Part shown: one piece after another, positions 21,442-60,167 of the stretch
Numbering within the stretch: position 1 is the stretch's first letter
How the letters are laid out: each line of letters opens with the position of its first letter
Virus record (IMG/VR): IMGVR_UViG_3300030419_007499
Location: 1 to 64,000 of that record
Strand: one strand, 5' to 3'
Length of the DNA: 64,000 nt
Origin: an uncultured virus (IMG/VR IMGVR_UViG_3300030419_007499)
Lineage: Duplodnaviria > Heunggongvirae > Uroviricota > Caudoviricetes
Program-made: the position numbers and the translations under genes
The notes under the pieces: generated by a model
Databases searched by the model: none
Told to the model about the DNA's origin: nothing
The model's input: only the letters and a program-made list of their open reading frames with translations

Positions 21442-21452
21442 GCTTTTATTAA

Positions 21453-21469
21453 AGCACAAACCGTGCCAA
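21453..21469 (-). promoter_or_regulatory. sigma54 (-24/-12) promoter of hsp20
   Basis: Minus strand TTGGCACGGTTTGTGCT: GG-N10-GC, close to the YTGGCACG-N4-TTGCW consensus. Confidence 0.75.
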
Positions 21470-27361: not shown

Positions 27362-27362
27362 A

Positions 27363-28646: not shown

Positions 28647-28653
28647 TTTAAAA

Positions 28654-29658: not shown

Positions 29659-29661
29659 ATT

Positions 29662-32258: not shown

Positions 32259-32266
32259 ATTATATT

Positions 32267-33957: not shown

Positions 33958-34847
33958 AAATTTTTATTTCTTTTGGCATAACGGATTCGCCATGGGGCGG
34001 AGGCAATCAATTTTTAAAAAATTTAAAAAAGTGTTTCGCAGAAGAAGGATTGTATACTGAATCGCCAGAATATGCAGATATTATATTATATAACGGACAT
34101 CAATTCATTGAACAAACTTCATTGATTAAAAAAGCTCATCCCAATAAAATTTTTGTTCATAGGATGGACGGACTGCAAAAACTTTATAACAACGCCTCAG
34201 ACACAAGACAAGATTTAGCTATAGACTTTAATAAACTCTCTGATGCAACGATATTTCAGAGTCATTGGTCAAAAGATGAATTTAAAAAATTTAATTTTAA
34301 TCCAGAAAAATCAACAGTTATACCAAACGCCGCAGATCCTGAAATTTTCCATGATACAAACGAGGCGAAAAAAAACCAAAAAATCAATTTGTTGTGCACT
34401 AGTTTTTCAAACAACCTAAACAAAGGGTTTTTATTTTACAAGGAACTAGATGATGCATTAGATTTCGAACAATTTAACTTCACTTTTATAGGAAATAAAC
34501 CAGATGACATAACTTACAAAAATATAAAATGCTCACCACCGAAAACAACAACTGAAATTGCCAAAGAACTAAAACAAACAGATGTTTTTGTTTCTGCCAC
34601 AGTAAATGACTGTTGTTCCAACTCTATTATTGAAGCGTTGACATCTGGAGTCCCTGTTTTAGCTCAAAATAGCGGAGGAAACCCAGAAATAGTAAAAGAT
34701 GGAGGAGAATTATTTGAAGATATAGATGAATTTCTATTTAATCTTCAAAAAATAACATTGAACATTGATTTTTATAAGAAAATGATTAATATCAAAACAA
34801 TGAAACAAATTGCGTCAGATTATGTAGAATTTTTTCAATGTATTTAG
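33954..34847 (+). CDS. GT4 glycosyltransferase
   Basis: WGGGNQF, VIPNA, SNSIIEALTSGVPV, SGGNPE motifs. Confidence 0.85.
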   Translation: MKIFISFGITDSPWGGGNQFLKNLKKCFAEEGLYTESPEYADIILYNGHQFIEQTSLIKKAHPNKIFVHRMDGLQKLYNNASDTRQDLAIDFNKLSDATIFQSHWSKDEFKKFNFNPEKSTVIPNAADPEIFHDTNEAKKNQKINLLCTSFSNNLNKGFLFYKELDDALDFEQFNFTFIGNKPDDITYKNIKCSPPKTTTEIAKELKQTDVFVSATVNDCCSNSIIEALTSGVPVLAQNSGGNPEIVKDGGELFEDIDEFLFNLQKITLNIDFYKKMINIKTMKQIASDYVEFFQCI

Positions 34848-35569
34848 TTAACATTAGCATAGATGATATTTCTCCACACCCACAGTCTTCAACAAAGGTG
34901 CTTGATAGGTGTTATGAGCTCATCGATATTTTTCCAAGTATAAAGTTTACGCTTTTTATACCTTGCGCATATTGGAGAACCATGTCTAACAATCGAGGAG
35001 TAGAAGGATTGCTTACTTGCACAAGCCAACCGCTCTGCCTTGATGATTATCCTGAGTTTTGCCAGGAAATTCTTAGCATTAATAGCAAAAATTTTGAAAT
35101 CGGCTTTCACGGGTTATACCACGGAGTTCCCCATAAAAGCAATAATGATGAATTTAGGGGCGCAAGTTACAACGAGACAGTGAAAATTATAGAAGGCATG
35201 CGCGAGGTCGCGAAAAAAACAAAGATACCATTCAAAAACATACTGCGTCCCCCAGCTTGGAGAATGTCGCCAGAGTCAATAAAAGCGTGCGCGGACCACG
35301 GAATTGAGATATTAGCACTTTCGTCCGACATGTATCATGACGGATCATTAGACTATAAAGGTGAAGATAAAAAATTTAAAAACGTAGTCTATTATAATTG
35401 TTGCCCACCATCTAAAGAGTTAAAATTTTATAAAAAAACAGAAATAGTTTACCACGCATGTGAATGGGATTCAAACTTTTTAAATGAAAAGCTTAAAGAC
35501 GATCTAGTAGATTTCCTCAATAGCGAAAAAGAAAATGTCAAATTTGCATTTATGGACGCAATGCTATAA
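34838..35569 (+). CDS. Polysaccharide deacetylase-like protein (CE4/DUF2334-like)
   Basis: ISIDD, EIGFHGLYH, RPPAW motifs. Confidence 0.75.
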   Translation: MYLVNISIDDISPHPQSSTKVLDRCYELIDIFPSIKFTLFIPCAYWRTMSNNRGVEGLLTCTSQPLCLDDYPEFCQEILSINSKNFEIGFHGLYHGVPHKSNNDEFRGASYNETVKIIEGMREVAKKTKIPFKNILRPPAWRMSPESIKACADHGIEILALSSDMYHDGSLDYKGEDKKFKNVVYYNCCPPSKELKFYKKTEIVYHACEWDSNFLNEKLKDDLVDFLNSEKENVKFAFMDAML

Positions 35570-35572
35570 GCC

Positions 35573-36175
35573 ATGGGCAGATCAGATCCACACATTTTTA
35601 ATTTTTATAATAACAATATAAAACCTAGAGGTTCAACAGCTTTATTAGGTTTTACCAATAATAATGTTTACCAAGGTGACCTTTATGATTTAAGCTTAGA
35701 CAATTGGAATATAAATTCAGAATGGATGCTCAAAAAAAAGTATGACACAATAATCTGCACAAGGTGTGCTTATTTTGCAGAAGACCCATGGGACTTTACT
35801 GAAAGATGCCATGAGCACTTAAACAAAGATGGTATTTTATATGTTGATTGGGGCTTAGGAGACCATTGGAGGTTTGAAGATTATAAAATTGGCTGGGTTA
35901 AAAATGAACAACAAGAATATGCATACCAAGATAATAACTATTTATGGTCTACAGTTTGGGATAAGCGATTCAAAAGCAATGACCAGTATAAGCTTTTTTG
36001 TAAAAACGTAGAAAAGTTTGGTTACAATAATGTAGAAAAAGCGATAATAAAAGAAGTGCCAAGAGTACTGAAGTTAGATTACATAAAGCTATTTTTTAAC
36101 GTAGAATATGATATACTTTCACTATGGGAAGATTCACCTCAACTTTATATCTTAATTAAGGCAACAAAAAAATGA
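35573..36175 (+). CDS. Methyltransferase-like protein
   Basis: YDTIIC...HLNKDGILYV resembles the class I MTase core; motif I degenerate. Confidence 0.5.
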   Translation: MGRSDPHIFNFYNNNIKPRGSTALLGFTNNNVYQGDLYDLSLDNWNINSEWMLKKKYDTIICTRCAYFAEDPWDFTERCHEHLNKDGILYVDWGLGDHWRFEDYKIGWVKNEQQEYAYQDNNYLWSTVWDKRFKSNDQYKLFCKNVEKFGYNNVEKAIIKEVPRVLKLDYIKLFFNVEYDILSLWEDSPQLYILIKATKK

Positions 36176-37119
36176 ATTTTTTAGCCCTAGAAATGACTTT
36201 TTTGCGCTATTTTCTTCCACTTATTATTTGCGGAAATAAAAGAAACATAAAGTCAACAGTTTTAGTAGAGCGCAATAATAAGTATAACTGCCCGATAAAA
36301 AACGCAAAACACTTAGAATCTTTATCAGATAAATATAATTTTAATGTTCGGTATGCAAGCAAAGCAAACAAGGATATAACTTTCTTAATTGAAGGTGTTG
36401 GCGCCAACCTAACTAATGCCAAAAAAGTTTCAATGACCTACATGACAGACTATACACTTTCATGGAAAAAATATTGGAGCGACATAGACCACTGCATATT
36501 TCCATCAAAATGGTTTGCTGAATTTATTAAAAAAGAAAAAGATGAAAAATCATTGTTCCTAGGAAGTCCGAAGTATGATCTAAAACTCAACAAAGAGGAA
36601 CTTTTTAAAAAATACAACTTAAGTCACGAGTTCAAATACGCGTTTATACCTCTTCCAAGATCTAGAGATTTAAATTTAGTTAATTTATCTTTTGTTTATA
36701 ATTTTTTACGCAACAAAGGATACAAAATTATCACAAAGTCAAGAGGAAAAGATAATTATAAAGGAGATGGCGATTTTAATTTTTCTGATACATCATGGTT
36801 TCCTCATGATTCAATGGAGTTAATAAGCATATCAGACTTGGTAATAAACTTTGATTCTACCTGCATTAAAGAATGCGTAATGGCGAGAAAAAAAGTTATT
36901 AATTTTAACGTTAAGCCTTTTAAGCAATTGTTGCCAGAACTATACAATGAGAAATACTCCGCAAATATAAAATCCGACTTTTGGAACGAAGACAACTTAA
37001 ATAAGCATTATGAAAGAATTTCAACCTCCAACGCTTCAAGCTTTGATCCTGTCATTGAAAAATATTTATTTAAGACTGGAAGTTCTGCCAGAATATTAGA
37101 TTATTTTGGTATAAAGTGA
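36172..37119 (+). CDS. GT-B transferase, candidate CMP-nonulosonate transferase
   Basis: GSPKYD and SDLVINFDST..E motifs like CDP-glycerol/KpsS-type transferases; directly upstream of neuA-neuB. Confidence 0.5.
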   Translation: MNFLALEMTFLRYFLPLIICGNKRNIKSTVLVERNNKYNCPIKNAKHLESLSDKYNFNVRYASKANKDITFLIEGVGANLTNAKKVSMTYMTDYTLSWKKYWSDIDHCIFPSKWFAEFIKKEKDEKSLFLGSPKYDLKLNKEELFKKYNLSHEFKYAFIPLPRSRDLNLVNLSFVYNFLRNKGYKIITKSRGKDNYKGDGDFNFSDTSWFPHDSMELISISDLVINFDSTCIKECVMARKKVINFNVKPFKQLLPELYNEKYSANIKSDFWNEDNLNKHYERISTSNASSFDPVIEKYLFKTGSSARILDYFGIK

Positions 37120-37679
37120 ACATTTTAGCAATTATCCCCGCAAGAGGCGGAAGCCAAAGACTACGCAACAAAAATATATACCCCTTATGGGGAAAACCAA
37201 TGATTTACTGGGCAATACAAGCCTGTAAACAATCAAAATTTAACATTAAAGTATGTGTAAGCACCGAAAGCGAAGAAATATCGAATATATCTCAAGAACT
37301 TGGGGCTACAGTACATAAAAGAGACCCAAAGCTTGCGGATCACAAAACCTATAAACAGGCAGCGGTTAGATCTGCTGCAGAATGGTATGAAAAGGTAAAT
37401 GGCAAACAAGACATTTTTATATCCTTACAAGCCAATTCTCCACAAATAAAAAATAAAGATCTTGACAAAGGTATAGAGATTTTGCTAGAATACCAAAAAG
37501 ACGAAATATTTAGCGTCGATTCCAATTTAATGCAAAATGCTGCTTTTAGAGTCTTTAAAGGAGACTATGTATACCAAGAAGATCTAAGCACTAATTGTGG
37601 AGCCTGCGTTTGTGAATTACATGATGTGCACACTTTAGATGACATAAAGTATCTAGAGTCAGGCTTAGACACAATATAA
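37116..37679 (+). CDS. neuA: Acylneuraminate cytidylyltransferase (CMP-nonulosonate synthetase)
   Basis: AIIPARGGSQRLRNKN, GKPMI, LQANSP motifs; GTG start. Confidence 0.85.
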   Translation: MNILAIIPARGGSQRLRNKNIYPLWGKPMIYWAIQACKQSKFNIKVCVSTESEEISNISQELGATVHKRDPKLADHKTYKQAAVRSAAEWYEKVNGKQDIFISLQANSPQIKNKDLDKGIEILLEYQKDEIFSVDSNLMQNAAFRVFKGDYVYQEDLSTNCGACVCELHDVHTLDDIKYLESGLDTI

Positions 37680-37690
37680 CATAACAACAA

Positions 37691-38371
37691 ATGACAAAAA
37701 CTTACATCATATCAGAGCTTTGCGGACAATGGGGAGGCTCAATGAGTCGAGCTAAAGAAATGATTGACCAATCTAAAATCGGAGGAGCAAATGCGGTAAA
37801 GGTTCAATTATGGGATACTTATAAAATGCCAGGAGACAATAGAGAAAAATGGGAATACCTCGTGATGAGTAAAGATCAGTTTTTTGAATTAAAGGATTAT
37901 GCGGACAAAGTTGGTATTGATTTTTTTGCTTCACCTTTTGACTCCGAAAGGTTTAGTTGGGTGCTAGAAGCTAATCTTAAAATAAACAAAATAGCAAGTT
38001 CTGTATTAGAATGGAATTTTGATTTGTGCGAGAATATGGTTTCATCAGGATTAAGAACTTTTTGTTCACTTGGAAAATGGAATAAAGATAAATTACCGTT
38101 TAATAATGATAACGTAGAATACTTTCACTGTTTAGCTGAATACCCACATTCAGAAGAAAGAGCAATATCAAAAATGCCTACAAACCTAACAGGTTACAGC
38201 GACCATTCAATTGGGATTGGAGCCTGTATCGAAGCAGCGAGTCGTGGAGCTACTTTAATAGAAAAACACTTTACCCTAGATAAAAATTTACAATGTGAAA
38301 CAGAGTCTGCACATTCATGTTCTATGGACTTGGATGAATTAAAAAAACTAACTGAATTCTGTAAAACATGA
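37691..38371 (+). CDS. neuB: Nonulosonic acid synthase (NeuB family), lacking the C-terminal antifreeze-like domain
   Basis: AVKVQ, KIAS, HCLAEYP, GYSDHS, IEKHFTLD motifs. Confidence 0.85.
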   Translation: MTKTYIISELCGQWGGSMSRAKEMIDQSKIGGANAVKVQLWDTYKMPGDNREKWEYLVMSKDQFFELKDYADKVGIDFFASPFDSERFSWVLEANLKINKIASSVLEWNFDLCENMVSSGLRTFCSLGKWNKDKLPFNNDNVEYFHCLAEYPHSEERAISKMPTNLTGYSDHSIGIGACIEAASRGATLIEKHFTLDKNLQCETESAHSCSMDLDELKKLTEFCKT

Positions 38372-39105
38372 AAAACAAGCTAAACATAGCTTTGATCACA
38401 GCTGGCAATCCAAGACATCATTATTTTAAAAAAAAGATTTCTTCGGTAGTTGATGTCGGGCTAGTTATTGAAGAGCCAAAAAAATCAACGCCGCAAGAAA
38501 AAGAAATATCATTTTTTAAAAATTCCTTTTTAGATAATAACTGGAATTCCAAAAGAAACAAGCAAGTTAATATAAGTGATAAAACCCTAAACAACGTTGA
38601 AACACAAAAAATTTTAGAAGATTTTTCCCCTGATTATATTTTTACTTTTGGTTGCGGACTACTTAAAGACAATATTATAAAAACTGCGTCAAAATGCATA
38701 ATAAACATTCATACTGGGCTCACTCAACACCACAGAGGCGTTGAGGGGCCGCTATTTGCAATATATGAAGAAGATGCCAGCATAATAGGCGCGACAATTC
38801 ATCAAGTCACAACAGGAATAGATTCTGGCCAAGTTATTGCACAAGACAGGCCTAAACTAAGACTAGACGATAACTTAGATTTGTTATTTTATAGAGCCTG
38901 CAAATGCGGAATAGATCTTTTACAAAAAAATATTATTGATATAATTTTGGGTAAAGCTAAATTTCAAACCCTAGACAAAGGAAAGTTATACCAAAAGAAA
39001 GATGTCACAAATGAAGTGATGACTTCTGCAAATTCAAAAGTTGGCGCCGTACTCTATAATTATTATGATTTAGATGGCGCGGCAGATCGGTTTATATATT
39101 ATTAA
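38368..39105 (+). CDS. Formyltransferase (N10-formyl-THF dependent, sugar N-formylation)
   Basis: INIHTG..HRG, GATIH, IDSGQVIAQ motifs. Confidence 0.8.
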   Translation: MKNKLNIALITAGNPRHHYFKKKISSVVDVGLVIEEPKKSTPQEKEISFFKNSFLDNNWNSKRNKQVNISDKTLNNVETQKILEDFSPDYIFTFGCGLLKDNIIKTASKCIINIHTGLTQHHRGVEGPLFAIYEEDASIIGATIHQVTTGIDSGQVIAQDRPKLRLDDNLDLLFYRACKCGIDLLQKNIIDIILGKAKFQTLDKGKLYQKKDVTNEVMTSANSKVGAVLYNYYDLDGAADRFIYY

Positions 39106-39106
39106 A

Positions 39107-39961
39107 ATGAAAATTGGAATTTTTTTATCTTGTTATAATAGCGAAGACACAATTCAAGAATGTATTGACTCTATTCTTGAACAAACCTATTCAGATTTTA
39201 ATCTTTATATTTTTGATGATAACAGCAAGGACAATACTGTAGAAAAAATTAAAAAAAATCAAGACCAAAGAATTAATTTGATTTGTTCTAAAAAAAACAT
39301 GGGCACGTATGCATCTAAAAATTTCCTTTTTAAAAAGTATGGGCACCTACATAAGTATATAGCACTGCACGATTCAGATGACATCAGCATAATCAACAGG
39401 CTCGAAGAACAAATTGCTTTTTTAAAAGACAGTTGTGATAAAACTGCTTGCTGCGGAACGAATATTATAGAGTTTTGGAAAGACGATTATTTGCCCCATA
39501 CTGTTTCATCCGAAATGGTTAATAAAAAAAGCAGAAAGAACTTTTACCCAGAAGAACTCCAGAAGTCTATTTTAAAAGATGTTGTAAACTATTTAACTAA
39601 AGAAAGCTCATATCAAAATTATATGAAAACTAAGTTTTGCATGAATGGATCTCTCATGTTTAAAAGTAAGATTATAAAAGAGCTTGGCGGATGGGATGGC
39701 AAAACTCACATAGCAGCCGACACAGATATAATACTTAGAATTTTAGCTAAATATCGTATTTTTAATCTACAAAAGTTTTTATATAAGCGCAGATTCAGCA
39801 ATACATCATTAACTGGCAGCACGAAAGTAGGAGTATGCTCAGAAATCAGAAAACAATACAATTTAAAACGAGTAGACATTGCTCAGTCAGCTCTTGACGG
39901 AAAAGTGTCAAAACAAAATTTTTATTTTCCAGAATTTAATTACGAATGTGTGCAATTATAG
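39107..39961 (+). CDS. GT2 glycosyltransferase
   Basis: YNSE, SILEQT, DDNSKD, HDSDD, RLEEQ motifs; ATG at 39107. Confidence 0.85.
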   Translation: MKIGIFLSCYNSEDTIQECIDSILEQTYSDFNLYIFDDNSKDNTVEKIKKNQDQRINLICSKKNMGTYASKNFLFKKYGHLHKYIALHDSDDISIINRLEEQIAFLKDSCDKTACCGTNIIEFWKDDYLPHTVSSEMVNKKSRKNFYPEELQKSILKDVVNYLTKESSYQNYMKTKFCMNGSLMFKSKIIKELGGWDGKTHIAADTDIILRILAKYRIFNLQKFLYKRRFSNTSLTGSTKVGVCSEIRKQYNLKRVDIAQSALDGKVSKQNFYFPEFNYECVQL

Positions 39962-41550
39962 GTACAGTAAATCATGAGTTAAACAGACTTTGCTTATCAA
40001 AGTTATATTCGAGAGGTCCCGATTATAATAGTTTATATAAAAATAAAAACGTAAGTTTTGCTCATGCAAGGCTCTCAGTCATTGATGCAGAAGGAGGAAA
40101 CCAGCCTATGCATTCAATGTCTGGCAATTCAACCATTATCTTTAACGGGGAAATTTATAATGCCAGAGAGTTAGATGCTAGCCATAAGTCAGACACAAGA
40201 GTTCTTTTAGAGTATTATGAGAAACACGGAATTGAGAAGACTTTACAAGATATCAACGGTATGTTTTCTTTTGCAATTCTCGATAAAGAACAAAACAAAA
40301 TTTTTATAGCAAGAGACAGGCTAGGCGTTAAGCCTTTATTTTATTACAATAAAAATAATAAGTTAATTTTTTGCTCTGAAATTAATCCAATCAAAGATGA
40401 AGTAGGAATAAGCAACCTCTCAATTAATAGCACGGCACTTGGAGTTTATTTTAGACTATTTTTCATTCCATCCCCTATTACAATATGGAACGAAATCCAA
40501 AGTCTCAAACAGGGTAGCTATTTGACATACGACTTAAAGTCTAATCAGTTGCAACAAAAAACATATTGGAAGCTTTCTCAACCCGAGAGGTCTGAAACAA
40601 ATATAAATAGACTAGAAGAGTTAATTGAGAATGCGTCAACAATACGAACGAGAAGCGATGTGCCATATAGCGTTTTTCTTTCTGGAGGGATAGATTCAAC
40701 ATTAATTACGAAATATCTATCGACATTTAATCAAAATCTACAAACTTACACTGTTGAGGTACAAGACCCCAACTTAAATGAGGCTGAGTATTCAAGCATA
40801 GTTGCTACAAAATTCAAAACAAAACACTCTTCAATTAAATTAAAATATAAAAATATATTAATTAATCACCTCAGAGAAATGACTACTCATTTTGGCCAGC
40901 CATTTGCAGATTTATCTATAATACCATACGACTTAATTTCAAAACAGATAGGCTCACGTTCAATTGTTGCGCTGGGAGGAGACGGAGCAGACGAATCCTT
41001 TTGTGGCTACGATAGATACAATAACCCCACAGGAACTGTTGAAGATTTGTATAGAAACAAGCAATTTAATCTCATTCCCTCTGAAGATCCAAGAGACTTT
41101 ATGTTAAATAACTTGCCTTATATCCCAACAGATAAAAGCGAATTATTAAGGATTTTGGACATAAGCTATTTTTTAGAGGGCGATATTCTACAAAAAGTTG
41201 ATAGATTAAGCATGAGGCATTCATTAGAAGTGAGGTCGCCACTTTTAGATTATAGAATTGTTGAATTTTCCAATACTTTAGATTATAATCTGATGTTCAA
41301 GATGAGAAAAAAAGAGGCATTAAGGAGACTTTTAGAAAAAGACTTTTCGAAAGATTTTATTGATAGAAAAAAAATAGGCCTCACGCTTACGCCTGAAAAT
41401 CTTAAAGCGACCGTGGACAGCTATCTTGATCAATACAGCTTTAGTCATTCATTAGTTTGTCCAAATTGGCTTAAAAAAGTTGCCTCAAATTATTATTTAA
41501 AATTTGCAATGTTAATGTTTGTTTTATGGCACGAGGAAAACTATGTCTAA
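39946..41550 (+). CDS. Glutamine-hydrolysing asparagine synthase-like amidotransferase (likely sugar amidation)
   Basis: N-terminal Cys nucleophile (MCAI), RGPD, FNGEIYN, RDRLGVKPL, LSGGIDS, GDGADE, KVDRLSM, EVRSP. Confidence 0.9.
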   Translation: MCAIIGTVNHELNRLCLSKLYSRGPDYNSLYKNKNVSFAHARLSVIDAEGGNQPMHSMSGNSTIIFNGEIYNARELDASHKSDTRVLLEYYEKHGIEKTLQDINGMFSFAILDKEQNKIFIARDRLGVKPLFYYNKNNKLIFCSEINPIKDEVGISNLSINSTALGVYFRLFFIPSPITIWNEIQSLKQGSYLTYDLKSNQLQQKTYWKLSQPERSETNINRLEELIENASTIRTRSDVPYSVFLSGGIDSTLITKYLSTFNQNLQTYTVEVQDPNLNEAEYSSIVATKFKTKHSSIKLKYKNILINHLREMTTHFGQPFADLSIIPYDLISKQIGSRSIVALGGDGADESFCGYDRYNNPTGTVEDLYRNKQFNLIPSEDPRDFMLNNLPYIPTDKSELLRILDISYFLEGDILQKVDRLSMRHSLEVRSPLLDYRIVEFSNTLDYNLMFKMRKKEALRRLLEKDFSKDFIDRKKIGLTLTPENLKATVDSYLDQYSFSHSLVCPNWLKKVASNYYLKFAMLMFVLWHEENYV

Positions 41551-42172
41551 CCCAATAGTCTCAATTATAGTTACTAATTACAATTATGGAAAGTTTTTGC
41601 ATCGTTGCCTAAGAAGCTGTTTCTCGCAAAAATTTTTAAACTATGAGGTTTTAGTTGTTGACGACTGCAGTACGGATAATTCAATTGAAATACTTCAGCC
41701 CTTTTTACAATCAAACAACAATTTAAAGCTCATTAATAATCAAGAAAATCTTGGAGTCGCAGAATCCGCAAACCTTGCAATCAACGCCAGTAGAGGCCAA
41801 TTTTTTATCAGAGTTGACTCTGATGATTTTGTAGTATCAGATATGTCTTATATTATGTACAAGTTCCTCGAGGCAAATCATTATAGCTTTGGAGTTTCCT
41901 GTGACTATTATTTAGTCGATAACTATGAAGATAAAATAGAAAGAAAATCTGCCGAGGAATTTCCTATATCTTGCGGAATTATGTACAGAAGAGACCTGTT
42001 TTTAGAATTAGGAGGATATAATCCCAAAATGAGACATAGGGAAGAAGAGGAGTTGAGAAAAAGGCTTGGAGAAAAATATAGAGTAGACTATTTAAAAATG
42101 CCTTTTTACAGATACAGGATGCATGACTGCAATAAAACAAAAACAAAAGAATATTTAGAAACAAAAGTATGA
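41543..42172 (+). CDS. GT2 glycosyltransferase
   Basis: VSIIVTNYNY, VDDCSTD, RVDSDD motifs; ATG at 41543. Confidence 0.9.
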   Translation: MSNPIVSIIVTNYNYGKFLHRCLRSCFSQKFLNYEVLVVDDCSTDNSIEILQPFLQSNNNLKLINNQENLGVAESANLAINASRGQFFIRVDSDDFVVSDMSYIMYKFLEANHYSFGVSCDYYLVDNYEDKIERKSAEEFPISCGIMYRRDLFLELGGYNPKMRHREEEELRKRLGEKYRVDYLKMPFYRYRMHDCNKTKTKEYLETKV

Positions 42173-43008
42173 ATGTAGGAATTATAGGAAGAGGATTCGT
42201 TGGCAACGCCATATTTCAAGGATTAAACCATTATTATGATATTAAAGTTTATGATGTCGACCCCAAAAAGTCAACGCATAATTTCGACGAGGTAATTAAT
42301 TCTGATGTGGTTTTCTTATCCGTGCCAACCCCCATGCACAAAGACACTGGCGAATGCGACTTGTCTTATATAGAATCCGTCTTTGACAAAGTCAAAGAAA
42401 CAAACGGAAGAAATGAATCTTGCACTTTTGTCATCAAGTCTACCGTGCCAGTTGGAACTACCGAACAGCTAAATGAAAAGTATGATCAAAAGATTAAAAT
42501 TATACACTCTCCAGAGTTTTTAACCGCAAGAACCGCAATAACAGATTTCATATGTCCGTCTCGACATATTATTGGCGGACACCCCGCAAGAGGCACAGAG
42601 AAGTTGAAAGAAATTTATGAGTCGAGATTTCCAGGAGTGCCCTGCTACGTAATGACAAGTAAAGAGTCTGAATTTGTAAAATATTTTGCAAATTGTTTTT
42701 TTGCTACAAAAGTTTCATATTTTAATGAAATGGCTATTTTTGCGAAAGCTCATGGCCTAAATTGGGAAAATGTCATTGAAGGAGTTATGTCTGATGGAAG
42801 AATTGGAATTAGCCATTATCAAGTTCCTGGCCACGACGGAAATCCTGGATTTGGTGGAACCTGTTTCCCCAAAGATATCAATGCTCTAATTAAAAGCTTT
42901 GAAAATGTGGGAACTGAGCCATTACTGTTAAAAGCGGCATGGGAAAGAAATCTTTTAGTAAGAAATGAGAAGGACTGGGAAAGTTCAAAGTCGGCAGTCA
43001 GCGAATAA
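42169..43008 (+). CDS. ugd: UDP-glucose/GDP-mannose 6-dehydrogenase family (short form, no C-terminal domain)
   Basis: [30 protein letters not shown] motifs. Confidence 0.85.
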
Positions 43009-43018
43009 AAAAATAATC

Positions 43019-43885
43019 ATGAAACATTTAGTAACAGGCGGAGCAGGATTCATAGGTAGTCATTTAGTGGATAAGTTAATATCCGAAGGTCACGAAGTCA
43101 CGATTGTCGATGNNNNNNNNNNTGAATTATGCCAAGCAATGGATGAAGTAGATACTGTTTTTCATTGTGCCGCGCTAGCTCGAGTTCAACCATCTATTGA
43201 GAATCCACAAAAATATCACAAAGCAAATGTAGATGGAACATTTAACGTTCTTTTGTCCGCAAGAGATAGCAGAGTTCGCAGAGTTGTGTATAGTGCCTCT
43301 TCGTCAGCGTATGGAGATCAATCCCAAAGTCCACAGGTAGAGACTATGCCTACTGCCCCAATAAGCCCATATGGATTACAAAAACTCATAGGAGAACAAT
43401 ACTGTTTTGTTTTTTCAAAATGTTATGGATTAGAAACTGTAAGTTTAAGATATTTTAATGTGTACGGAGAGAGACAAGTTGTTGGTGGAGCCTATTCTAC
43501 AGTTGTTGGTATATTTTTAAAACAAAAAGAAGATGGCCAAAAATTAACCATTACGAACGATGGAGAACAAAGAAGAGACTTTACTTATGTCGGAGACGTC
43601 GTAGAAGCTAATTTTTTAGCCTCTCAAAGCGATAAAGTTGGACAGGGAGAAGTAATTAATATAGGAAAAGGGAGCAACTATTCAGTTAATGAAATCGCAG
43701 AAATTATCGGAGGAGAAACAGAAAATATAGGCGAAAGATTTGAGCCCAGGCAAACACTAGCAGATAATTCTCGCGCAAAAGAGCTTTTAGGATGGACGCC
43801 CAAAACCGATATTAAAGATTGGATAAATTCGGCTTTTTTCGTGCCTTTCGAATCTGAAGATTCCATCCTTCCAATTGGGCAATAA
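43019..43885 (+). CDS. NAD-dependent epimerase/dehydratase (spans assembly gap)
   Basis: [31 protein letters not shown] motifs; N run at 43113-43122. Confidence 0.85.
43113..43122. other. Scaffold gap (10 N)
   Basis: Literal N run. Confidence 1.
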
Positions 43886-43890
43886 ATGTG

Positions 43891-43919
43891 TTGACTTTGT
43901 CTTAGATTTGATATATCAT
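43891..43919 (+). promoter_or_regulatory. sigma70 promoter upstream of nrdA
   Basis: TTGACT-17-TATCAT; a GTGTAA box follows at 43948-43953. Confidence 0.65.
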
Positions 43920-43965: not shown

Positions 43966-46407
43966 ATGAATATCAACGTAAAAAAACGCAACAATAGACT
44001 AGTCCCCTTCGAAGTAGAAAAAATTAACAGATCAGCAGAGAGAGCCTGCGAAAATTTAGAAAACGTTTCAGCCAGTGAAATCGTCTTAGACGCAAAAATA
44101 AAGCTTTACGACAAGGTAAAGACGTCAGAAATTGACAAATCTTTGATTTCTTCAGCTAGTTCAAAGATAGAAAAAGAGCCAAATTATAATTACGTAGCCG
44201 CAAGACTACTTCTTAATACAATTTACAAAGAAGTTTTTGGAGAGGGTGTAGATAGTCAAGCGTTTGAACTACAATATCATAAGTCTTTTATTACAAATCT
44301 CAAAAAGCTTATAAAAGAAGGAATTGTTGATCCAAAGTTAGCCGAGTTTGATCTTAAGAAAATTTCGGAGTCAATAGACACACAAAGAGATTTAAGTTGG
44401 AAATATTTAGGCATCCAAACTATTTATGATAGATATTTACTTCACATAGATGGACGCAGAATGGAAAGTCCTCAAGGCTTTTTTATGAGAGTCGCTATGG
44501 GATTAGCGTTAGCTGAAAAAGAAAATAGAGAAGATTGGGCAATTAAGTTTTACAATACCCTTTCTTCTTTTGACTTAATGTCTAGCACTCCAACTTTATT
44601 CAATAGCGGTACAGTGCATCCGCAACTTTCTTCATGCTACCTAAATACATTTGAAGATTCTATTGATGGAATTTTTGATGGTCTCTGGCAAGAAGCTCGT
44701 AAAAGCAAGTTTGCTGGCGGCTTAGGCATGGATGTCACCCCATACAGGGCAAGAGGATCTTATATTAAGGGCACAAACGGCGAAAATCAAGGTCCAGTAT
44801 ATTTTTGGAAACTCTATGGAGATATGCTTGTTGCAGTCAACCAAGGGGGTAAAAGAAAAGGTGCGGGATGCGCATATTTAGAAACTTGGCATGCAGACAT
44901 AGAAGACTTCCTAGAGCTTCGCAAAAATGTGGGCGACGAAAGGATGAGATCTCACGATATGAATACTGCTAATTGGATTCCTGATCTTTTTCTTAAGCAA
45001 GTCGAACAAGATAAAGATTGGTATTTGTTTAGCCCAAATGAAACTCCAGAACTTCATGAAATCTATGGAGAAGATTTTGAATCTAAATATTGGGAATATG
45101 TCGAAAAAGGCAAAAACGGAGAGCTTAGAGTTTTTAAAGAAGTACGAGCAAAAGAGCTTTGGAAAAAAATGCTAAAAGCTTTATTTGAAACTGGCCATCC
45201 ATGGATGACATTTAAAGATCCATCAAATATTAGATACTCAAACCAACACGTGGGCACTGTCCACTCGAGTAATTTGTGCACCGAAATACTTTTACATACA
45301 AAACCCACAAAATACAGCGATGGCAATTTACGAGGAGTTGAAGAACACGGAGAAACTGCGGTTTGCAATCTTGCGTCGATTAATTTAAAAAATCATCTCA
45401 AAAAAAGAACTCTAGATTTCGACAAAATACAAAAAACAGCGGAAATAGGAATGAGAATGTTGGACAATGTTGTAGACATTAATTTTTATCCAACAAAAGA
45501 ATCGGAAAACGCGAACGTACGCCATCGTCCAGTTGGATTAGGCAGTATGGGTTGGCATGACGTATTTTATGCTCTTGATGTAGACTACTCAAGCAATGAA
45601 GCTGTTGAATGGTCAGATAAAATTTATGAGCACATAAGCTATTCAGCTATTTTAGCCTCTAGCAAATTAGCAAAGGAAAGAGGTAAATACTCCACGTATC
45701 AAGGTTCTTTGTGGGACCAAGGAGTGTTACCTATTGATACATATAAAAATTTATTTAAAACAAGAGGCCAAAGACCTAGAACCACAACAAGCTTAGATTG
45801 GGATGCTGTTAGAAAGCATATCTCAGAGCACGGCATGAGGAATAGCAACACAATGGCCATCGCGCCAACAGCAACAATTTCCTACATTTGCGGTTGTTCA
45901 CAATCTATTGAGCCTAATTTTGGAGTTATTTTTGTGTACTCTACTCTTTCTGGAGAGTTTACTCAAATTAATGAATATTTTGTAGAAGATATTAAAAAAG
46001 CTGGATTATGGAGTCAAGAATTTATAGATGCGATCAAATCAGTTGATGGGGACTTATCCAAACTAGAGAATACTATCCCAGACAAAATCAAGGAAAAGTA
46101 TAAAACCGCATTCCATCAAGATCAGTTAAAGCTAATAGATTGTGCCGCAGCAAGACAAAAATGGATTGACCAAGGGCAAAGTCTAAATTTGTATAATAAC
46201 AAAACCAGCTTAAAGTTTTTAAATGATATGTACATGCATGCATGGAAATCTGGACTTAAAACAACTTATTACTTAAGAAGCACCGCTGCAAGTGTAGTAG
46301 AGAAATCAACAGTTTCTAACCAAAAAAAAGAATACACGGAAGAGGAAGTTATGGCCTGTTCTATTGAGGCAATGAAAAATGGCGAAGAGTGCGAAGCCTG
46401 TCAGTAG
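43966..46407 (+). CDS. nrdA: Class I ribonucleotide reductase alpha subunit with N-terminal ATP-cone
   Basis: VKKRN ATP-cone, STPTLFNSG, LSSCY, SSNLCTEI, IAPTATIS, GLKTTYY, C-terminal CEACQ. Confidence 0.95.
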   Translation: MNINVKKRNNRLVPFEVEKINRSAERACENLENVSASEIVLDAKIKLYDKVKTSEIDKSLISSASSKIEKEPNYNYVAARLLLNTIYKEVFGEGVDSQAFELQYHKSFITNLKKLIKEGIVDPKLAEFDLKKISESIDTQRDLSWKYLGIQTIYDRYLLHIDGRRMESPQGFFMRVAMGLALAEKENREDWAIKFYNTLSSFDLMSSTPTLFNSGTVHPQLSSCYLNTFEDSIDGIFDGLWQEARKSKFAGGLGMDVTPYRARGSYIKGTNGENQGPVYFWKLYGDMLVAVNQGGKRKGAGCAYLETWHADIEDFLELRKNVGDERMRSHDMNTANWIPDLFLKQVEQDKDWYLFSPNETPELHEIYGEDFESKYWEYVEKGKNGELRVFKEVRAKELWKKMLKALFETGHPWMTFKDPSNIRYSNQHVGTVHSSNLCTEILLHTKPTKYSDGNLRGVEEHGETAVCNLASINLKNHLKKRTLDFDKIQKTAEIGMRMLDNVVDINFYPTKESENANVRHRPVGLGSMGWHDVFYALDVDYSSNEAVEWSDKIYEHISYSAILASSKLAKERGKYSTYQGSLWDQGVLPIDTYKNLFKTRGQRPRTTTSLDWDAVRKHISEHGMRNSNTMAIAPTATISYICGCSQSIEPNFGVIFVYSTLSGEFTQINEYFVEDIKKAGLWSQEFIDAIKSVDGDLSKLENTIPDKIKEKYKTAFHQDQLKLIDCAAARQKWIDQGQSLNLYNNKTSLKFLNDMYMHAWKSGLKTTYYLRSTAASVVEKSTVSNQKKEYTEEEVMACSIEAMKNGEECEACQ

Positions 46408-46433: not shown

Positions 46434-46856
46434 ATGAACATAGAAATTAAAAAGCTACATGACGATGCTTATCTTCCGTCGAGAAATAGCTCTGGCGATG
46501 CTGGGTACGATTTGTACGCAATTGGCCACGATGTTGTTAGAGCTGGAGAAAGAAAACTTGTAAACACAGGGGTTAGCATTGCCATTCCCCATGGGTATTA
46601 TGGCAGAATTGCCCCTAGATCAGGTTTGGCCCTTAATCATGGGATAGATATTTTAGCTGGAGTTGTTGATTCTGGATACAGAGGGGAAATTTGCGCGCTT
46701 TTAGTCAACCTAGGGGACAAAAACTTTGCTTACAGAAAAGGAGATAGAATAGCCCAACTTATTATCGAAAAATGCCACGACGTTAGTTGGAAGCAAGTTC
46801 AAGAACTTAATGGTACGCATAGAGGCGACGATGGATTTGGAAGTTCTGGGGATTGA
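46434..46856 (+). CDS. dut: dUTPase (trimeric)
   Basis: AGYDL, PRSGLA, GVVDSGYRGE, GDRIAQL, RGDDGFGSSG motifs; ATG at 46434. Confidence 0.95.
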   Translation: MNIEIKKLHDDAYLPSRNSSGDAGYDLYAIGHDVVRAGERKLVNTGVSIAIPHGYYGRIAPRSGLALNHGIDILAGVVDSGYRGEICALLVNLGDKNFAYRKGDRIAQLIIEKCHDVSWKQVQELNGTHRGDDGFGSSGD

Positions 46857-46881
46857 CATACAAACCAATATCTGTTATAAT
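46853..46881 (+). promoter_or_regulatory. sigma70 promoter, leaderless, for nrdB
   Basis: Perfect TTGACA-17-TATAAT, 6 nt before the ATG; the -35 contains the dut stop codon. Confidence 0.85.
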
Positions 46882-46887
46882 ATTTAA

Positions 46888-47892
46888 ATGAAGAGCGGAA
46901 ATCTCCTAGAAAAAGAAACTGCAGGCGTTAACCAAATCTTGCCCCACAAACACAAATGGGCTTGGGAATTGTACGAACAGGCAATAAAAAACAATTGGGT
47001 TCCAACTGAAGTCCCAATGGCTAAAGATGTCCAAAATTGGAAAAACTCCAAATCAGATTTAAGCGAAGACGAAAGATTAGTAATCAAAAGATGTTTAGGT
47101 TTTTTTGCTGGCAGCGAATCTCTAGTCGCCAACAATTTAATGACTCTTGCCAAGTTTATTACTGATCCAGAATGCAGGCAGTATATGGCTCGACAAATGT
47201 ATGAGGAGTGTTTACATAATCATACTATTGTTTATATATGCGACAGTTTAAGTTTAGATATTAAAGAGGTTTACGAAGCTTATGCGAGCATTCCTTCCAT
47301 CAAGGAAAAAGACGAGTTTTTAATGGAGGTTACAAGCGACCTCAATAGGCAAGAATTTTCAACACAAACGCTAGAAGGCAAAAGAGAGCTTATAAAAGCT
47401 GCGTTTACCTACTGGATTGTTTGCGAAGGAACTTTCTTTTTTAGTGGTTTTGCTATGCTTTTAGCATTATCAGATAAAATCCCAGGAATTGCCGAACAAA
47501 TTCAATACACCCTCAGAGATGAAAGTTTGCACATTAAATTCGGTACAAATCTTCTCAATAAACTTAAAGAGCAATATCCATCAACTTGGACCAAATCTTT
47601 TGAAAAAGAACTAACAAAGATAGTGCAAAAAGCGGTAGAGTTAGAAATCAAATATGCCGAAGATGTTTTGCCTAGAGGGATTTTAGGCTTAAATTCTTCA
47701 ATGTTTGTTAGTTATATGCAGTTTATAGCCAACAGAAGACTTGAAGCGCTAGATATGGAGTTTAGATACGAAAGCGATTCTAACCCGTTCCCTTGGTTAA
47801 GTGAGGTGATTGATCTTAAAAAGCAAAAGAATTTCTTTGAAACTAGAGTGATCGACTACCAAGATCATTCTGCACTAGAAGATGATTTTTAA
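46888..47892 (+). CDS. nrdB: Ribonucleotide reductase beta subunit, class Ic (R2c)-type signature
   Basis: FFAGSESLV (Glu first ligand), EECLHNHTI (no radical Tyr), EGTFFFSGF, RDESLH, NFFETRVIDYQ. Confidence 0.9.
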   Translation: MKSGNLLEKETAGVNQILPHKHKWAWELYEQAIKNNWVPTEVPMAKDVQNWKNSKSDLSEDERLVIKRCLGFFAGSESLVANNLMTLAKFITDPECRQYMARQMYEECLHNHTIVYICDSLSLDIKEVYEAYASIPSIKEKDEFLMEVTSDLNRQEFSTQTLEGKRELIKAAFTYWIVCEGTFFFSGFAMLLALSDKIPGIAEQIQYTLRDESLHIKFGTNLLNKLKEQYPSTWTKSFEKELTKIVQKAVELEIKYAEDVLPRGILGLNSSMFVSYMQFIANRRLEALDMEFRYESDSNPFPWLSEVIDLKKQKNFFETRVIDYQDHSALEDDF

Positions 47893-49116: not shown

Positions 49117-49144
49117 TTGACATATATTGTCAATCTGCTATAAT
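49117..49144 (+). promoter_or_regulatory. sigma70 promoter, leaderless, with palindromic -35 region
   Basis: TTGACA-16-TATAAT with extended TG, 7 nt before the ATG; TTGACA-N5-TGTCAA inverted repeat. Confidence 0.75.
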
Positions 49145-49395: not shown

Positions 49396-49424
49396 TTGAC
49401 TATCGGCTGGGTAGTTGGTATAAT
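49396..49424 (+). promoter_or_regulatory. sigma70 promoter for thyX operon
   Basis: TTGACT-17-TATAAT, 9 nt before the ATG. Confidence 0.8.
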
Positions 49425-50866: not shown

Positions 50867-51922
50867 ATGAATAATCAACCCAAAAAAACACTAATAACAG
50901 GAATACTCGGCCAAGATGGAGCAAACATGGCTGAGTACTTATTGTCTCTCGACGAACAAATAGAAGTTTACGGAATGATGCGTAGATCATCGAACGTAAA
51001 CGAAACTAACATACTATCGTTTAAAGATAACCCAAGATTTTCTTTGGTATATGGAGATTTAACAGATGAAATATCTGTAGATAGGCTCGTCAAAGATATA
51101 CAGCCAGATTATTTTATTAATTTTGGCGCAAATTCATTTGTTGGTTGTAGCTGGGACATGCCCTTACAAGTCTTCGATGTAAACACGCTTGGAGTGATTA
51201 GAGCCCTCGAGGCAATTAGAAAATTTAAACCTGATTGTAGATTTTATAGTGCAGGAAGCTCTGAAGAGCTTGGAGACGTTGATTATTCACCACAAGACAT
51301 AAACCACCCAATCAAGCCAAGAAGTCCATACGGAGCATCTAAAGCCGCAGCAAGGCACATTGTAAAAGTATACAGAGAATCTTATAGCTTATATGCGATA
51401 CATAGCATACTATTCAACCACGAAGGGCTACGTCGTGGAGAGGAGTTTGTTACGCGCAAAATTACAAAAGCTGTAGCAAAAATAGCCACCGCAATAGCGA
51501 ATAACGAAGATTTTGAGCCTATAAAATTAGGAAATGTAAATTCACAAAGAGATTGGTCGGACTCCGAAGACTTTGTAAAAGCTATCTGGCTAATGCTTAA
51601 TCAAGAACAGCCAAAAGAATATGTTTTATCAAGCAATGAAACGCATAGCATTAGAGAATTTGTCGAAAAGGCATTTGGATATGCTTACATATCTGGAGAT
51701 TGGCACGGCGAAGGCCTTGATGAAAAGTTCTTACATGAAGGCAACAACGTTCCACTAGTTGAAATTAGTAAAGACTTTTATCGCCCAGCTGAAGTGGAAC
51801 TACTTTATGGAGACTCTACTCCCGCAAGGAGAGAACTCAAGTGGGCACCAGAAGTTTCTTTTGACAATTTAGTGCAGCGTATGGTAGAATATGACTTGGA
51901 ATTAGAGCATGCCAAAAGGTAG
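50867..51922 (+). CDS. gmd: GDP-mannose 4,6-dehydratase
   Basis: LITGILGQDG, PRSPYGASK, LFNHE..RRGEEFVTRKIT, RDW, YRPAEVELL motifs. Confidence 0.95.
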   Translation: MNNQPKKTLITGILGQDGANMAEYLLSLDEQIEVYGMMRRSSNVNETNILSFKDNPRFSLVYGDLTDEISVDRLVKDIQPDYFINFGANSFVGCSWDMPLQVFDVNTLGVIRALEAIRKFKPDCRFYSAGSSEELGDVDYSPQDINHPIKPRSPYGASKAAARHIVKVYRESYSLYAIHSILFNHEGLRRGEEFVTRKITKAVAKIATAIANNEDFEPIKLGNVNSQRDWSDSEDFVKAIWLMLNQEQPKEYVLSSNETHSIREFVEKAFGYAYISGDWHGEGLDEKFLHEGNNVPLVEISKDFYRPAEVELLYGDSTPARRELKWAPEVSFDNLVQRMVEYDLELEHAKR

Positions 51923-58372: not shown

Positions 58373-59137
58373 ATGTTGCCTTTATTCAAAAGCCACTTTT
58401 CTATTGGTAAATCAATATTAACTTTAAATTTACCGTCACAATGTACCGACGGAGGACCAGACAGCATATTTAAAATAGCTAACGACAATAATCTCGACGA
58501 ACTCATTTTAGTAGAAGACTCCTTTAATGGCTTTTTACAAGCAAAGAAAAATGCAGAGGAATTAGAGATTCAGCTAATATTTGGCATAAGATTTGTAATT
58601 GCTGAAGATATCGACGAAAAACTAAGCAAAGATAACAACAACCAACACAAAATTATTATCTTTGCAAAAAACGACGAAGGGATAAAGTCTTTATATAAAA
58701 TATACAACAGGGCCTTTGCGAGAGGATTTGGTCATTTAGATTACAAATCTCTTAAAGAGCTTTGGAACAAAAATCTAAAGTTGGCAGTTCCATTTTATGA
58801 TTCTTTTTTATTTGCAAATTTAATTTCTTTTTCTAACTGCGTTCCAGACTTTACTTTTTGTAAACCAACTTTTTTTATTGAGAGCAATAACTTACCTTTT
58901 GACTTTTTAGTCGAACCAATAGTAAAGAAGTACTGCAAAGAAAATAAGTTTTCAATACAAAAAGTAAAGACAATTTATTATAACAAAAAAAGAGACGCAA
59001 AAGCCTTTCAAACATACAAATGCTTATGCTCTAGAGGTTTTGGTAGGCAAAAAACTTTAGAGGAACCAAACTTAGACCACTTTGGTAGTGATGAGTTTTG
59101 TTTCGAAAGCTGGCAAAAAGAAAATGAAAATAGATAA
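58373..59137 (+). CDS. Stand-alone PHP domain of DNA polymerase III alpha
   Basis: KSHFSIGKS, IQLIFGI, IIIFAKNDEGIKSLYKI match the DnaE PHP pattern. Confidence 0.75.
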   Translation: MLPLFKSHFSIGKSILTLNLPSQCTDGGPDSIFKIANDNNLDELILVEDSFNGFLQAKKNAEELEIQLIFGIRFVIAEDIDEKLSKDNNNQHKIIIFAKNDEGIKSLYKIYNRAFARGFGHLDYKSLKELWNKNLKLAVPFYDSFLFANLISFSNCVPDFTFCKPTFFIESNNLPFDFLVEPIVKKYCKENKFSIQKVKTIYYNKKRDAKAFQTYKCLCSRGFGRQKTLEEPNLDHFGSDEFCFESWQKENENR

Positions 59138-59504
59138 ACCAAAATACGTAGAAAAAGATTGGGGATCAGAAACTTGGTTCGCTAATAATCTAGAACATAA
59201 TTACTGCGGTAAAATTCTAGAAATTAAAAAGGGGCATTCGACGTCAATGCATTTTCACATTAATAAGCACGAAGTTTTTTATATCCTTGAAGGAATACTA
59301 GAAGTAATCTGGATAGATACAGAATCTGCCGAAGAACACATTATATATGTTCCACAAGGCATGTCAATGGAAATGCCTCAAGGTGTACCACATAGCTTAA
59401 TTGCAAGCGAAACAGATGTAAAACTCATAGAAGCAAGCACATTCCACCGTGATGAAGATAGTTACCGCTTGTGGAAAACAAGCAAGCCAATAACCAAAGC
59501 ATGA
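59124..59504 (+). CDS. Cupin (mannose-6-phosphate isomerase-like)
   Basis: VEKDWGSE, SMHFH..KHEVFYILEG, PHSL, IEAST motifs; ATG at 59124. Confidence 0.75.
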   Translation: MKIDKPKYVEKDWGSETWFANNLEHNYCGKILEIKKGHSTSMHFHINKHEVFYILEGILEVIWIDTESAEEHIIYVPQGMSMEMPQGVPHSLIASETDVKLIEASTFHRDEDSYRLWKTSKPITKA

Positions 59505-60142
59505 AAGACGAATTATTAAGATACAACAACAAGCAAAAATATTTAATTTTTGATTTTGAAACTTGCAATTTAAACCTAGTCAACCCAAGTAATCGCCCAT
59601 GGCAGTTATCATTTATCATTGCAACAAAAGATAAAGTTTTGGAAAAGCATGACCACTTCTTAAAATGGAAAGACTTAAAGGTTTCCGAGGGAGCTAAAGC
59701 TGCAACTAGATTTGATTATACAAAATATAAGATTAAGTCAGAAGAGCCATTACCAATACTTAGAAAATTTGATAAAGTGCTTTACGATAAAAAATATAAA
59801 ATTGTTGGGCACAACTTATTAGGCTTTGACATTTATGTGCATAATGCTTTAAGAAAGACATTAGGATTAAAAAGTGATTTTTCGTATTTACACAGACTAA
59901 TAGATACAAACTGTCTTGCCAAAGCATACAGAGAAGATATTAAATTCGATGTAAAGGATTCTTTTTTAAGTTGGCAGTTTAGGTTGGATGGATATATAAA
60001 AAGAGGCTTAAAGACTAATTTAGCAGCAATGCTTAAGGAATTTGATATAAACTTCGATAAAGACAAACTACATGATTCAATGTACGATATTCAAATGAAT
60101 TTAGAAGTGTTTAAAAAGCTTCTTTGGAAGATTGACATTTGA
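59501..60142 (+). CDS. DEDDh 3'-5' exonuclease (DnaQ/epsilon-like)
   Basis: FDFET, GHNLLGFD, IDT, LHDSMYD motifs; ATG at 59501. Confidence 0.85.
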   Translation: MKDELLRYNNKQKYLIFDFETCNLNLVNPSNRPWQLSFIIATKDKVLEKHDHFLKWKDLKVSEGAKAATRFDYTKYKIKSEEPLPILRKFDKVLYDKKYKIVGHNLLGFDIYVHNALRKTLGLKSDFSYLHRLIDTNCLAKAYREDIKFDVKDSFLSWQFRLDGYIKRGLKTNLAAMLKEFDINFDKDKLHDSMYDIQMNLEVFKKLLWKIDI

Positions 60143-60160
60143 GTTTTTTTATGTTACTAT
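60132..60160 (+). promoter_or_regulatory. sigma70 promoter, leaderless, for dnaE
   Basis: TTGACA-17-TACTAT with extended TG, 7 nt before the ATG at 60168. Confidence 0.8.
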
Positions 60161-60167
60161 TATTTTT

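Follow-up and report, generated by a model that had tools for sequence, protein, structure and literature searches.

The gene at positions 46888-47892 (plus strand) of the window, i.e., of the 64,000-nucleotide stretch of viral DNA analyzed here, is an open frame encoding a 334-aa NrdB, which on its sequence and setting is assigned as a functional beta subunit of a class I ribonucleotide reductase (RNR) that the phage itself encodes, of the NrdAz/Bz lineage. The protein has no radical tyrosine and is predicted to store its oxidizing equivalent on the metal cluster, and by analogy with its characterized relatives Mn(IV)/Fe(III) is probably the cofactor. Family model NF005550 (441.9 bits, cut-off 309), together with homology and structural matches, places it among NrdBz-type class I beta subunits, in a lineage with Ile or Val at the radical-tyrosine site (Ile/Val lineage).

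Among PDB sequences, the best phmmer match was the R2 of Chlamydia trachomatis (Ct; 1SYY, 373.5 bits, E 6.8e-111), followed by 6Y2N (348 bits), presumably the R2c of Saccharopolyspora erythraea, while the next family reached only 126 bits; both top matches are R2c and speak for Mn/Fe. The alignment to 1SYY runs through both motifs without gaps, with a one-residue gap between them, and sets E77, I114, Y116, Y207 and Y324 on E89, F127, Y129, Y222 and Y338, respectively; the Tyr of the mutant chain 2ANI (F127Y) falls in the I114 column. The initial annotation had read a Glu as first metal ligand and a residue other than Tyr four positions after the His of the ExxH motif, and the alignment to the chlamydial protein bears out both, with no Tyr in the radical-site column: Glu77 (GAA, 47116-47118) takes the place of Ct E89, where classes Ia and Ib have Asp, and Ile114 (ATT, 47227-47229) that of Ct F127 and E. 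coli Y122. The ligands Glu107-x-x-His110 and the clade-specific Asn111 (47206-47220) are directly preceded by the second-sphere Glu106 (Ct E119); ligand Glu180 lies with Phe184 (Ct F197, replaced by Ala in R2lox) at 47425-47439, and Tyr207 (Ct Y222), Thr208, Asp211 and the ligands Glu212 and His215 at 47506-47532. The electron relay Trp37 (46996-46998; Ct W51, E. coli W48) and the C-terminal radical-transfer Tyr324 (TAC, 47857-47859; Ct Y338) are present as well, all on the plus strand, and a codon check found E107, H110, E180, E212, H215, W37 and Y324 in frame. Assembly or sequencing error as the source of the signature was ruled out by contigs X2, X3 and X5: X2, 552 nt long and from another sequencing run, spans 46897-47448 with four differences, none of them in the Glu77 or Ile114 codons, and X3 and X5 carry the same Glu77 codon.

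A Glu as first ligand and a missing Tyr are also common to R2lox, and an R2lox-like oxidase, or a decayed and non-functional R2, was weighed as an explanation. It is very improbable. R2lox HMMs scored 43-65 bits against cut-offs of 194-315, and R2lox has a small residue at the F197 position, no Y222 and no alpha partner, while here Phe184, Tyr207 and a nearby nrdA are found, the first two being the markers that separate R2c from R2lox (Ct Y222 and F197; PMC4118035). R2lox identity was rejected on these model scores and markers. The six ligands, relay Trp37, C-terminal Tyr324 and an nrdA with intact residues nearby are those of a class I R2, and with them the earlier claim of a true R2 holds: NrdB is, on these features, a genuine R2 partnered with nrdA. 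The Asp ligand and radical Tyr of classes Ia and Ib are replaced by E77 and I114. Decay is further opposed by the presence of nrdA in 40 of 42 loci, the remaining two being cut inside nrdB, and by strong purifying selection, indicated by synonymous sites saturated against 15/15 relatives compared with dN at 0.155-0.32.

The signature is strictly conserved. In the closest set (the query and the best 120 of 4455 matches) E77 is found in 121/121 proteins and residue 114 is Ile in 101 and Val in 20; among the best 80 of at least 509 IMG/VR loci, E77 with Ile or Val at 114 occurs in 80/80 (Val114 in 53, Ile114 in 27), and N111, T208, Y207, W37, E106, D211 and F184 are each present in all 80. The IMG/VR stretches with NrdB relatives were found by patterns from the family alignment, and about 16 of the 80 contigs also appear in another IMG/VR relative set of the same analysis. 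This conservation, together with the saturated synonymous sites and low dN, indicates that the signature is not due to chance. Tyr116, which aligns to Ct Y129, was considered and rejected as a displaced radical site: although Tyr in 121/121 of the closest proteins, the residue is Tyr in just 28 of the best 80 of at least 509 viral loci, with Thr in 43 and His in 9, and is therefore not a replacement radical site. No substitute radical Tyr lies close by, in favor of a tyrosine-free enzyme.

The initial annotation went on to read a class Ic signature, a claim that stands for the Glu ligand, the absent radical Tyr and the nearest characterized relative, a Mn/Fe R2c, and does not for the residue at the radical site (Ile, not Phe), the clade (its own) and the pocket (different). 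In its favor, the ligands E,E,H,E,E,H and the second-sphere pair E106 and D211 reproduce the NrdBzc (Ic) row in Table 4 of PMC6370689, where class Id has Cys or Ser, and Cyano SP Asp, in place of the Ic second-sphere residue; the Y222 and F197 markers are kept, and T113 is common to 5/5 Glu/Phe references and absent from 3/3 Asp/Tyr references. An AlphaFold model built on a 62-row alignment (pLDDT 86.8) has the ferritin-like fold of an R2 and ends in a disordered tail. Its Foldseek top hit was the Ct Mn/Fe NrdB 4M1I (TM 0.88, rmsd 1.5), and VIA-align Z reached 44.3 with Ct and 42.4 with 6Y2N, compared with 38 in class Ia and 33 in the class Id R2 of Flavobacterium johnsoniae (Fj), also favoring Mn/Fe. 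The radical-site residue fits less well. Class Ic has been given as a Phe/Glu pair (PMC8463856, where class Id is Tyr/Glu with Lys71 and Thr191), as Phe or Leu (PMC12918982) and as Phe/Leu/Val (PMC6370689); Ile114 is in none of these three lists, and Val114, carried by 53 of the best 80 of at least 509 viral relatives, fits just the widest. The present evidence suggests that NrdB acts as a class Ic enzyme does; with Ile outside the Phe/Leu(/Val) set, it is filed here under an 'Ic-like' lineage and not as proven class Ic. Both structurally characterized R2c have Phe, and 119/119 Planctomycete-type relatives have the Glu/Phe pair, against a Mn/Fe cofactor here, and PMC4118035 holds that sequence or structure does not assign metal identity, the ligand sphere being shared.

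If the cofactor is Mn/Fe, the metals would be bound by E77, E107, H110, E180, E212 and H215, and Mn(II)/Fe(II) would react with O2 to give Mn(IV)/Fe(III), as in Chlamydia R2c; the extra electron would arrive via Y207/W37, and the radical would pass from Y324 through NrdA Y769/Y768 to C438. A lower iron need, with a benefit in iron-poor water, and resistance to NO and peroxide may follow, as a hypothesis extrapolated from Chlamydia, where NO resistance itself is put forward as a hypothesis (PMC4118035).

The pocket around the metals differs from that of canonical Ic. Comparison of 90 clade rows with 8 outgroup rows located the clade-specific, invariant or nearly invariant residues N111, V115, C179, I205, T208 and I216, with I/V114, on the metal-site helices; read from the sequence register rather than from coordinates, the site-1 pocket is remodeled through Asn111, Ile/Val114, Ile205 and Thr208. 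Such a pocket, more open and polar through Ile/Val replacing Phe, Thr replacing Ile, Ile replacing Tyr/Phe and Asn replacing Thr, would help a tyrosine-free R2 with another high-valent cofactor, most plausibly Mn2(IV/III) with Id-like chemistry, which would make a new subclass; we regard this as rather unlikely. Evidence for it comes from Thr208, present in 90/90 clade rows and 0/8 outgroup rows, Ile in Ct and Ile in 118 of 119 Planctomycete-type R2c (one gap), and located at E212-4, the putative position of Fj Thr191 by the register taken from E195 in Table 3 of PMC6370689; the Fj T191I chain scored 49.1 bits against NrdB and the wild type 51.8, the 2.7-bit loss agreeing with this register. 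In the 50%-cluster representatives that keep E107 and H110, Thr208 is found in 14 Glu rows whose residue 114 is Val, Leu, Ala or Ile, in no Glu/Phe row and in one Asp/Tyr row. However, class Id Thr191 acts by binding a Tyr that is missing here (its role is described in PMC8463856), and class Id keeps an essential Tyr104 and a cone-less alpha (PMC8463856), whereas NrdB has I114 and an alpha with a cone. Furthermore, the Id Lys71 position, four after the first ligand, is Ala, Gly or Ser (position 81), the second-sphere residue is Glu and not Cys/Ser, the fold match to Fj is weaker than to Ct (Z 33 vs. 44), and helix 60-90 is predicted unbroken, an apo model nonetheless compatible with unwinding on metal loading. 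With the Id Lys and Tyr absent, NrdB is, as judged from its residues, not class Id. A further tyrosine-free group of NrdBz-like proteins, which combines Glu with a radical-site Leu and Thr208 (P0158, a long branch in the tree, and P0215), apparently lies outside the Ile/Val clade, and Glu/Tyr/Ile forms (P0142, P0173, P0180, P0190, P0200, P0253) are unlike class Id in overall sequence.

A diiron enzyme lacking a stable tyrosyl radical, its oxidant an Fe(IV)/Fe(III) pair or a radical at another site, or else a cambialistic one using host-offered metals, is distinctly unlikely, even if the ligand set also binds Fe2 and the oxidized Ct structure is diiron (PMC4118035). Mismetallation is known for the R2 scaffold (PMC8463856), no R2c has been shown with Mn/Fe in vivo according to the available text of PMC4118035, and a clade-specific Cys179 stands beside ligand E180 in 89 of 90 rows. 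On the other hand, R2c is highly active only with the heterodinuclear cofactor (PMC4118035), Y116 is not conserved, and the invariant Tyr and Trp of the clade are those common to other NrdBz proteins. Mn(IV)/Fe(III) stays the likeliest cofactor.

The partner gene nrdA (43966-46407, plus strand; NF005544, 1097 bits, cut-off 965) is intact, encodes an 813-aa alpha subunit and ends 480 bp upstream of nrdB. Its product has one ATP cone (PF03477, residues 3-88) and keeps C224, N436/C438/E440, C467, Y768/Y769 and the C-terminal C798/C809/C812. A dUTPase gene (46434-46856, plus strand; TIGR00576 above cut-off) lies between the two, and nrdA and nrdB match the window in GC content. A candidate sigma-70 promoter (46853-46881, plus strand; 12/12 consensus, 17-nt spacer, TG extension) stops 6 nt short of the nrdB ATG, and 46853-46888 contains no Shine-Dalgarno sequence; from this consensus match, nrdB may possibly have its own promoter and a leaderless transcript. 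None of the 16 relatives tested has a full -35/-10 promoter ahead of nrdB; in nine close relatives (L001-L022) an AT-rich -10-like word stands at a similar place, with no -35 match. Coverage by the RNA run X20 is limited to part of dut and 35 nt of nrdB, too little to bear on expression. Similarly strong sigma-70 consensus sites occur at 49117-49144, at 49396-49424 before thyX and at 43891-43919 before nrdA. The word GTGTAAWWA, a candidate late-promoter element, was not enriched (6 vs. 4.1 expected).

The source record is a 71.7-kb linear virus, about 37% complete, and its genes include tail-fiber and virion proteins, a UvsX-like recombinase, DnaB, primase, DNA polymerase III alpha and ThyX. 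Sequencing runs of named source holding the stretch were marine, seawater or estuary metagenomes, with the exception of one synthetic metagenome. No capsid gene was found in the 60 window ORFs scanned, and a T4-type Gp23 capsid with terminase was present in four of five large relatives tested (152-222 kb). No PF00258 match, as for a NrdI-like flavodoxin, was found in the contig, an absence that is uninformative at about 37% completeness. The replicative polymerase is of the bacterial DNA polymerase III alpha type (60132-62753, within the polymerase region 58373-62753); a separate ORF (58373-59137) matches the N-terminal part of the polymerase's PHROG family, and a cupin gene lies between it and an exonuclease ORF (59471-60142). 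A sugar-modification cluster of about 19 kb (window ~24700-43900 and 50867-51922) holds several glycosyltransferases, an aminotransferase, a UDP-GlcNAc 2-epimerase, a cytidylyltransferase, a NeuB-family synthase, a formyltransferase-like gene, a UDP-glucose dehydrogenase and epimerases; a 10-base N gap at 43113-43122, in the nucleotide-sugar epimerase ORF (42965-43885), is an assembly gap and not biology. A full-length ClpA/ClpB-family AAA+ chaperone gene runs from 62768 to the end of the window (64000) and on to 65158 of the contig, and an Hsp20 gene lies at 21052-21459 (minus strand). Beyond the window, at contig 68716-70385, a gene for a prepilin-type N-methylation protein is followed by one for a PulC-like secreted protein; the prepilin start has what we take to be a PVC/Verrucomicrobiota-like look, a hint of the host that finds no backing in the adjoining gene, whose Atlas look-alikes are viral clusters, or in the 120 homologues listed, none of which carries an organism name.

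The initial annotation considered this RNR type unusual for a phage. This is not supported, given at least 509 IMG/VR stretches with NrdB relatives, the best 80 of which all carry the signature, and a 2026 preprint that had already flagged what is very probably the same tyrosine-free lineage (Harrison et al., bioRxiv 2026, PMC12918982); the lineage is widespread in T4-like marine phages. Identity to NrdB in cultured phage records is at most 44%, the closest being the NrdBz class Ia type of Pseudomonas phage vB_PpuM-SKa-4, and the one cultured-phage match inspected was an Asp/Tyr form. In the preprint, 269 alpha sequences of GOV 2.0, 1.44% of the GOV 2.0 RNRs, form a viral and marine clade nearest NrdAz, stated to be without an RNRdb reference and named 'subclass Ic-like', with Ile or Val at the Tyr site of the beta subunit. 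The Ile/Val lineage is very probably the same clade, matched by description: its radical-site residue and its viral, marine origin agree. In an alpha tree of our references, without the preprint sequences, the NrdA of the lineage groups in a clade of its own (100/100), separate from five references of NrdAz type. According to the preprint, its clade is biochemically uncharacterized, with Mn/Fe, another cofactor or none all considered, which weakens a firm Mn/Fe assignment, and is anti-correlated with predicted iron in a pattern not explained by any single trace metal. Many Ic-like betas have also been placed among NrdAz/Aq (PMC9669993). New here are the description of the remodeled site-1 pocket and the chromosomal copies in cells. 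Our literature search, with most subscription literature outside its coverage, returned no assay of the Ile/Val lineage and no mention of cellular members; searches on RNR horizontal transfer in Micavibrio, on Ct F127/Y129 and on T191 returned no paper, nothing relevant and no paper with the term, respectively.

The NrdB tree, built on 84 of 130 aligned rows (46 left out) with the four signature columns removed, gathered the rows with Asn and Ile/Val into one clade of 38 rows (99/91). The clade falls inside an NrdBz group (95/95) that is poorly resolved and also holds Asp/Tyr and Glu/Phe forms, C. trachomatis not being in the tree; within this polytomy it is not sister to the Planctomycete R2c or to the P0124/Methylocella R2c group, which, with the pocket differences, counts against Mn/Fe. 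Its weakly supported sister is a pair of long-branch Glu/Phe rows (88/95), and deep nodes of the 84-row tree are limited by long branches. The annotated NrdB of a hot-spring virus, Aquificae Joseph's Coat Spring virus (BK013346.1, L055), pairs a Glu first ligand with Phe in the radical-site column. This viral protein, of class Ic type by its Phe/Glu signature, falls outside the NrdBz group in the tree.

The lineage is not restricted to viruses. Scanning GTDB with the single protein, which reaches close relatives only, returned eight loci of 69-74% identity in MAGs titled Alphaproteobacteria (6) and Bdellovibrionales (2). All eight (L035-L042) belong to one GTDB order, which we take to be Micavibrionales, and carry nrdA too where the contig reaches. 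The surrounding genes are of cellular type and include yaaA, uvrB and genes for cytidine deaminase, a DsbD-like protein and transporters, and the L035 locus lies on the 1.65-Mb chromosome of G001, at about 415000-418700. The peroxide-stress gene yaaA was found 1-3 kb upstream of nrdA (L035:19-687, L041:1442-2218; NCBIfam above cut-off), with yaaA look-alike ORFs in L036 and L038. In 5/5 genomes tested the Ile/Val type is the only beta locus, which also opposes an R2lox-like or decayed protein, and G030 likewise has one match; a single class I/II alpha, and no match to class III, was found in each of G001, G002, G003 and G030, and G005 holds further RNRs. With no other class I/II RNR found in these four genomes, the tyrosine-free enzyme appears to sustain cells, as expected of a working RNR. 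Of 151 genomes sampled from the order (not an unbiased sample) 142 have a beta match, eight of them of the Ile/Val type; the other matches are of at most 35% identity, and the six aligned are Asp/Tyr.

Nesting of the cellular copies, already visible in the 84-row tree, was recovered in separate NrdA and NrdB trees with rows of known origin, where the five full-length copies form a clade inside viral diversity. Viral monophyly was rejected (p-AU 0.0012 for NrdA, 0.010 for NrdB, and 0.0022 with 41 viral rows). These topologies suggest phage-to-cell RNR replacement as the simplest reading, the alternative being repeated cell-to-phage transfer from unsampled lineages. The cellular copies indicate that the Ile/Val enzyme can serve a cell as its sole RNR, and they may record the replacement of an essential gene from phage to bacterium. 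A broader reading, which we find unlikely, joins these observations: the lineage would be a separate class I subclass, its pocket (N111, I/V114, C179, I205, T208, I216) rebuilt for a non-Mn/Fe cofactor or activation, e.g., Tyr-less Mn2(IV/III), that diversified in T4-like aquatic phages and passed from phage to one alphaproteobacterial lineage, taking over there from the native Asp/Tyr form as sole RNR. A Mn/Fe cofactor would add widespread ocean phages to the pathogens and extremophiles with class Ic chemistry and allow a concrete test of whether the cofactors of viral RNRs follow the supply of trace metals, and a different cofactor would make a new RNR subclass; the nrdA/nrdB pair is complete and expressible.

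Compared with known systems, the Ile/Val lineage resembles the clade of PMC12918982 in its marine viral origin, its proximity to NrdAz and the Ile/Val in place of the radical Tyr of the beta subunit, and differs in being found also in cellular genomes and in the N111/I205/T208 pocket signature added here. With the class Id R2 of F. johnsoniae (6CWO, Mn2(IV/III)) NrdB shares the Glu first ligand, an expected metal-centered oxidant and Thr at the Thr191 position, but identity is about 20%, equivalents of Tyr104 and Lys71 are missing, the second-sphere residue is Glu instead of Cys/Ser and alpha bears a cone. The NrdBz class Ia R2 of Pseudomonas aeruginosa and of phage vB_PpuM-SKa-4 belong to the same broad lineage (41-45% identity), but carry a radical-site Tyr and an Asp as first ligand. 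The closest likeness is to the Ct R2c (1SYY, 4D8F, 4M1I) and 6Y2N, with about 49% identity over the structural alignment and an rmsd of 1.5 A, all six ligands kept, the pairs E89/E77, E119/E106, D226/D211, W51/W37, Y222/Y207, F197/F184 and Y338/Y324 (Ct/NrdB), and an alpha subunit in the same NCBIfam family. In contrast to Ct, NrdB has Ile in place of F127, Y220 and L231, Thr in place of I223, Asn in place of T124 and Cys in place of M192, its lineage is a clade separate from the Glu/Phe R2c groups, and its alpha subunit has one ATP cone where Ct has three (PMC9669993).
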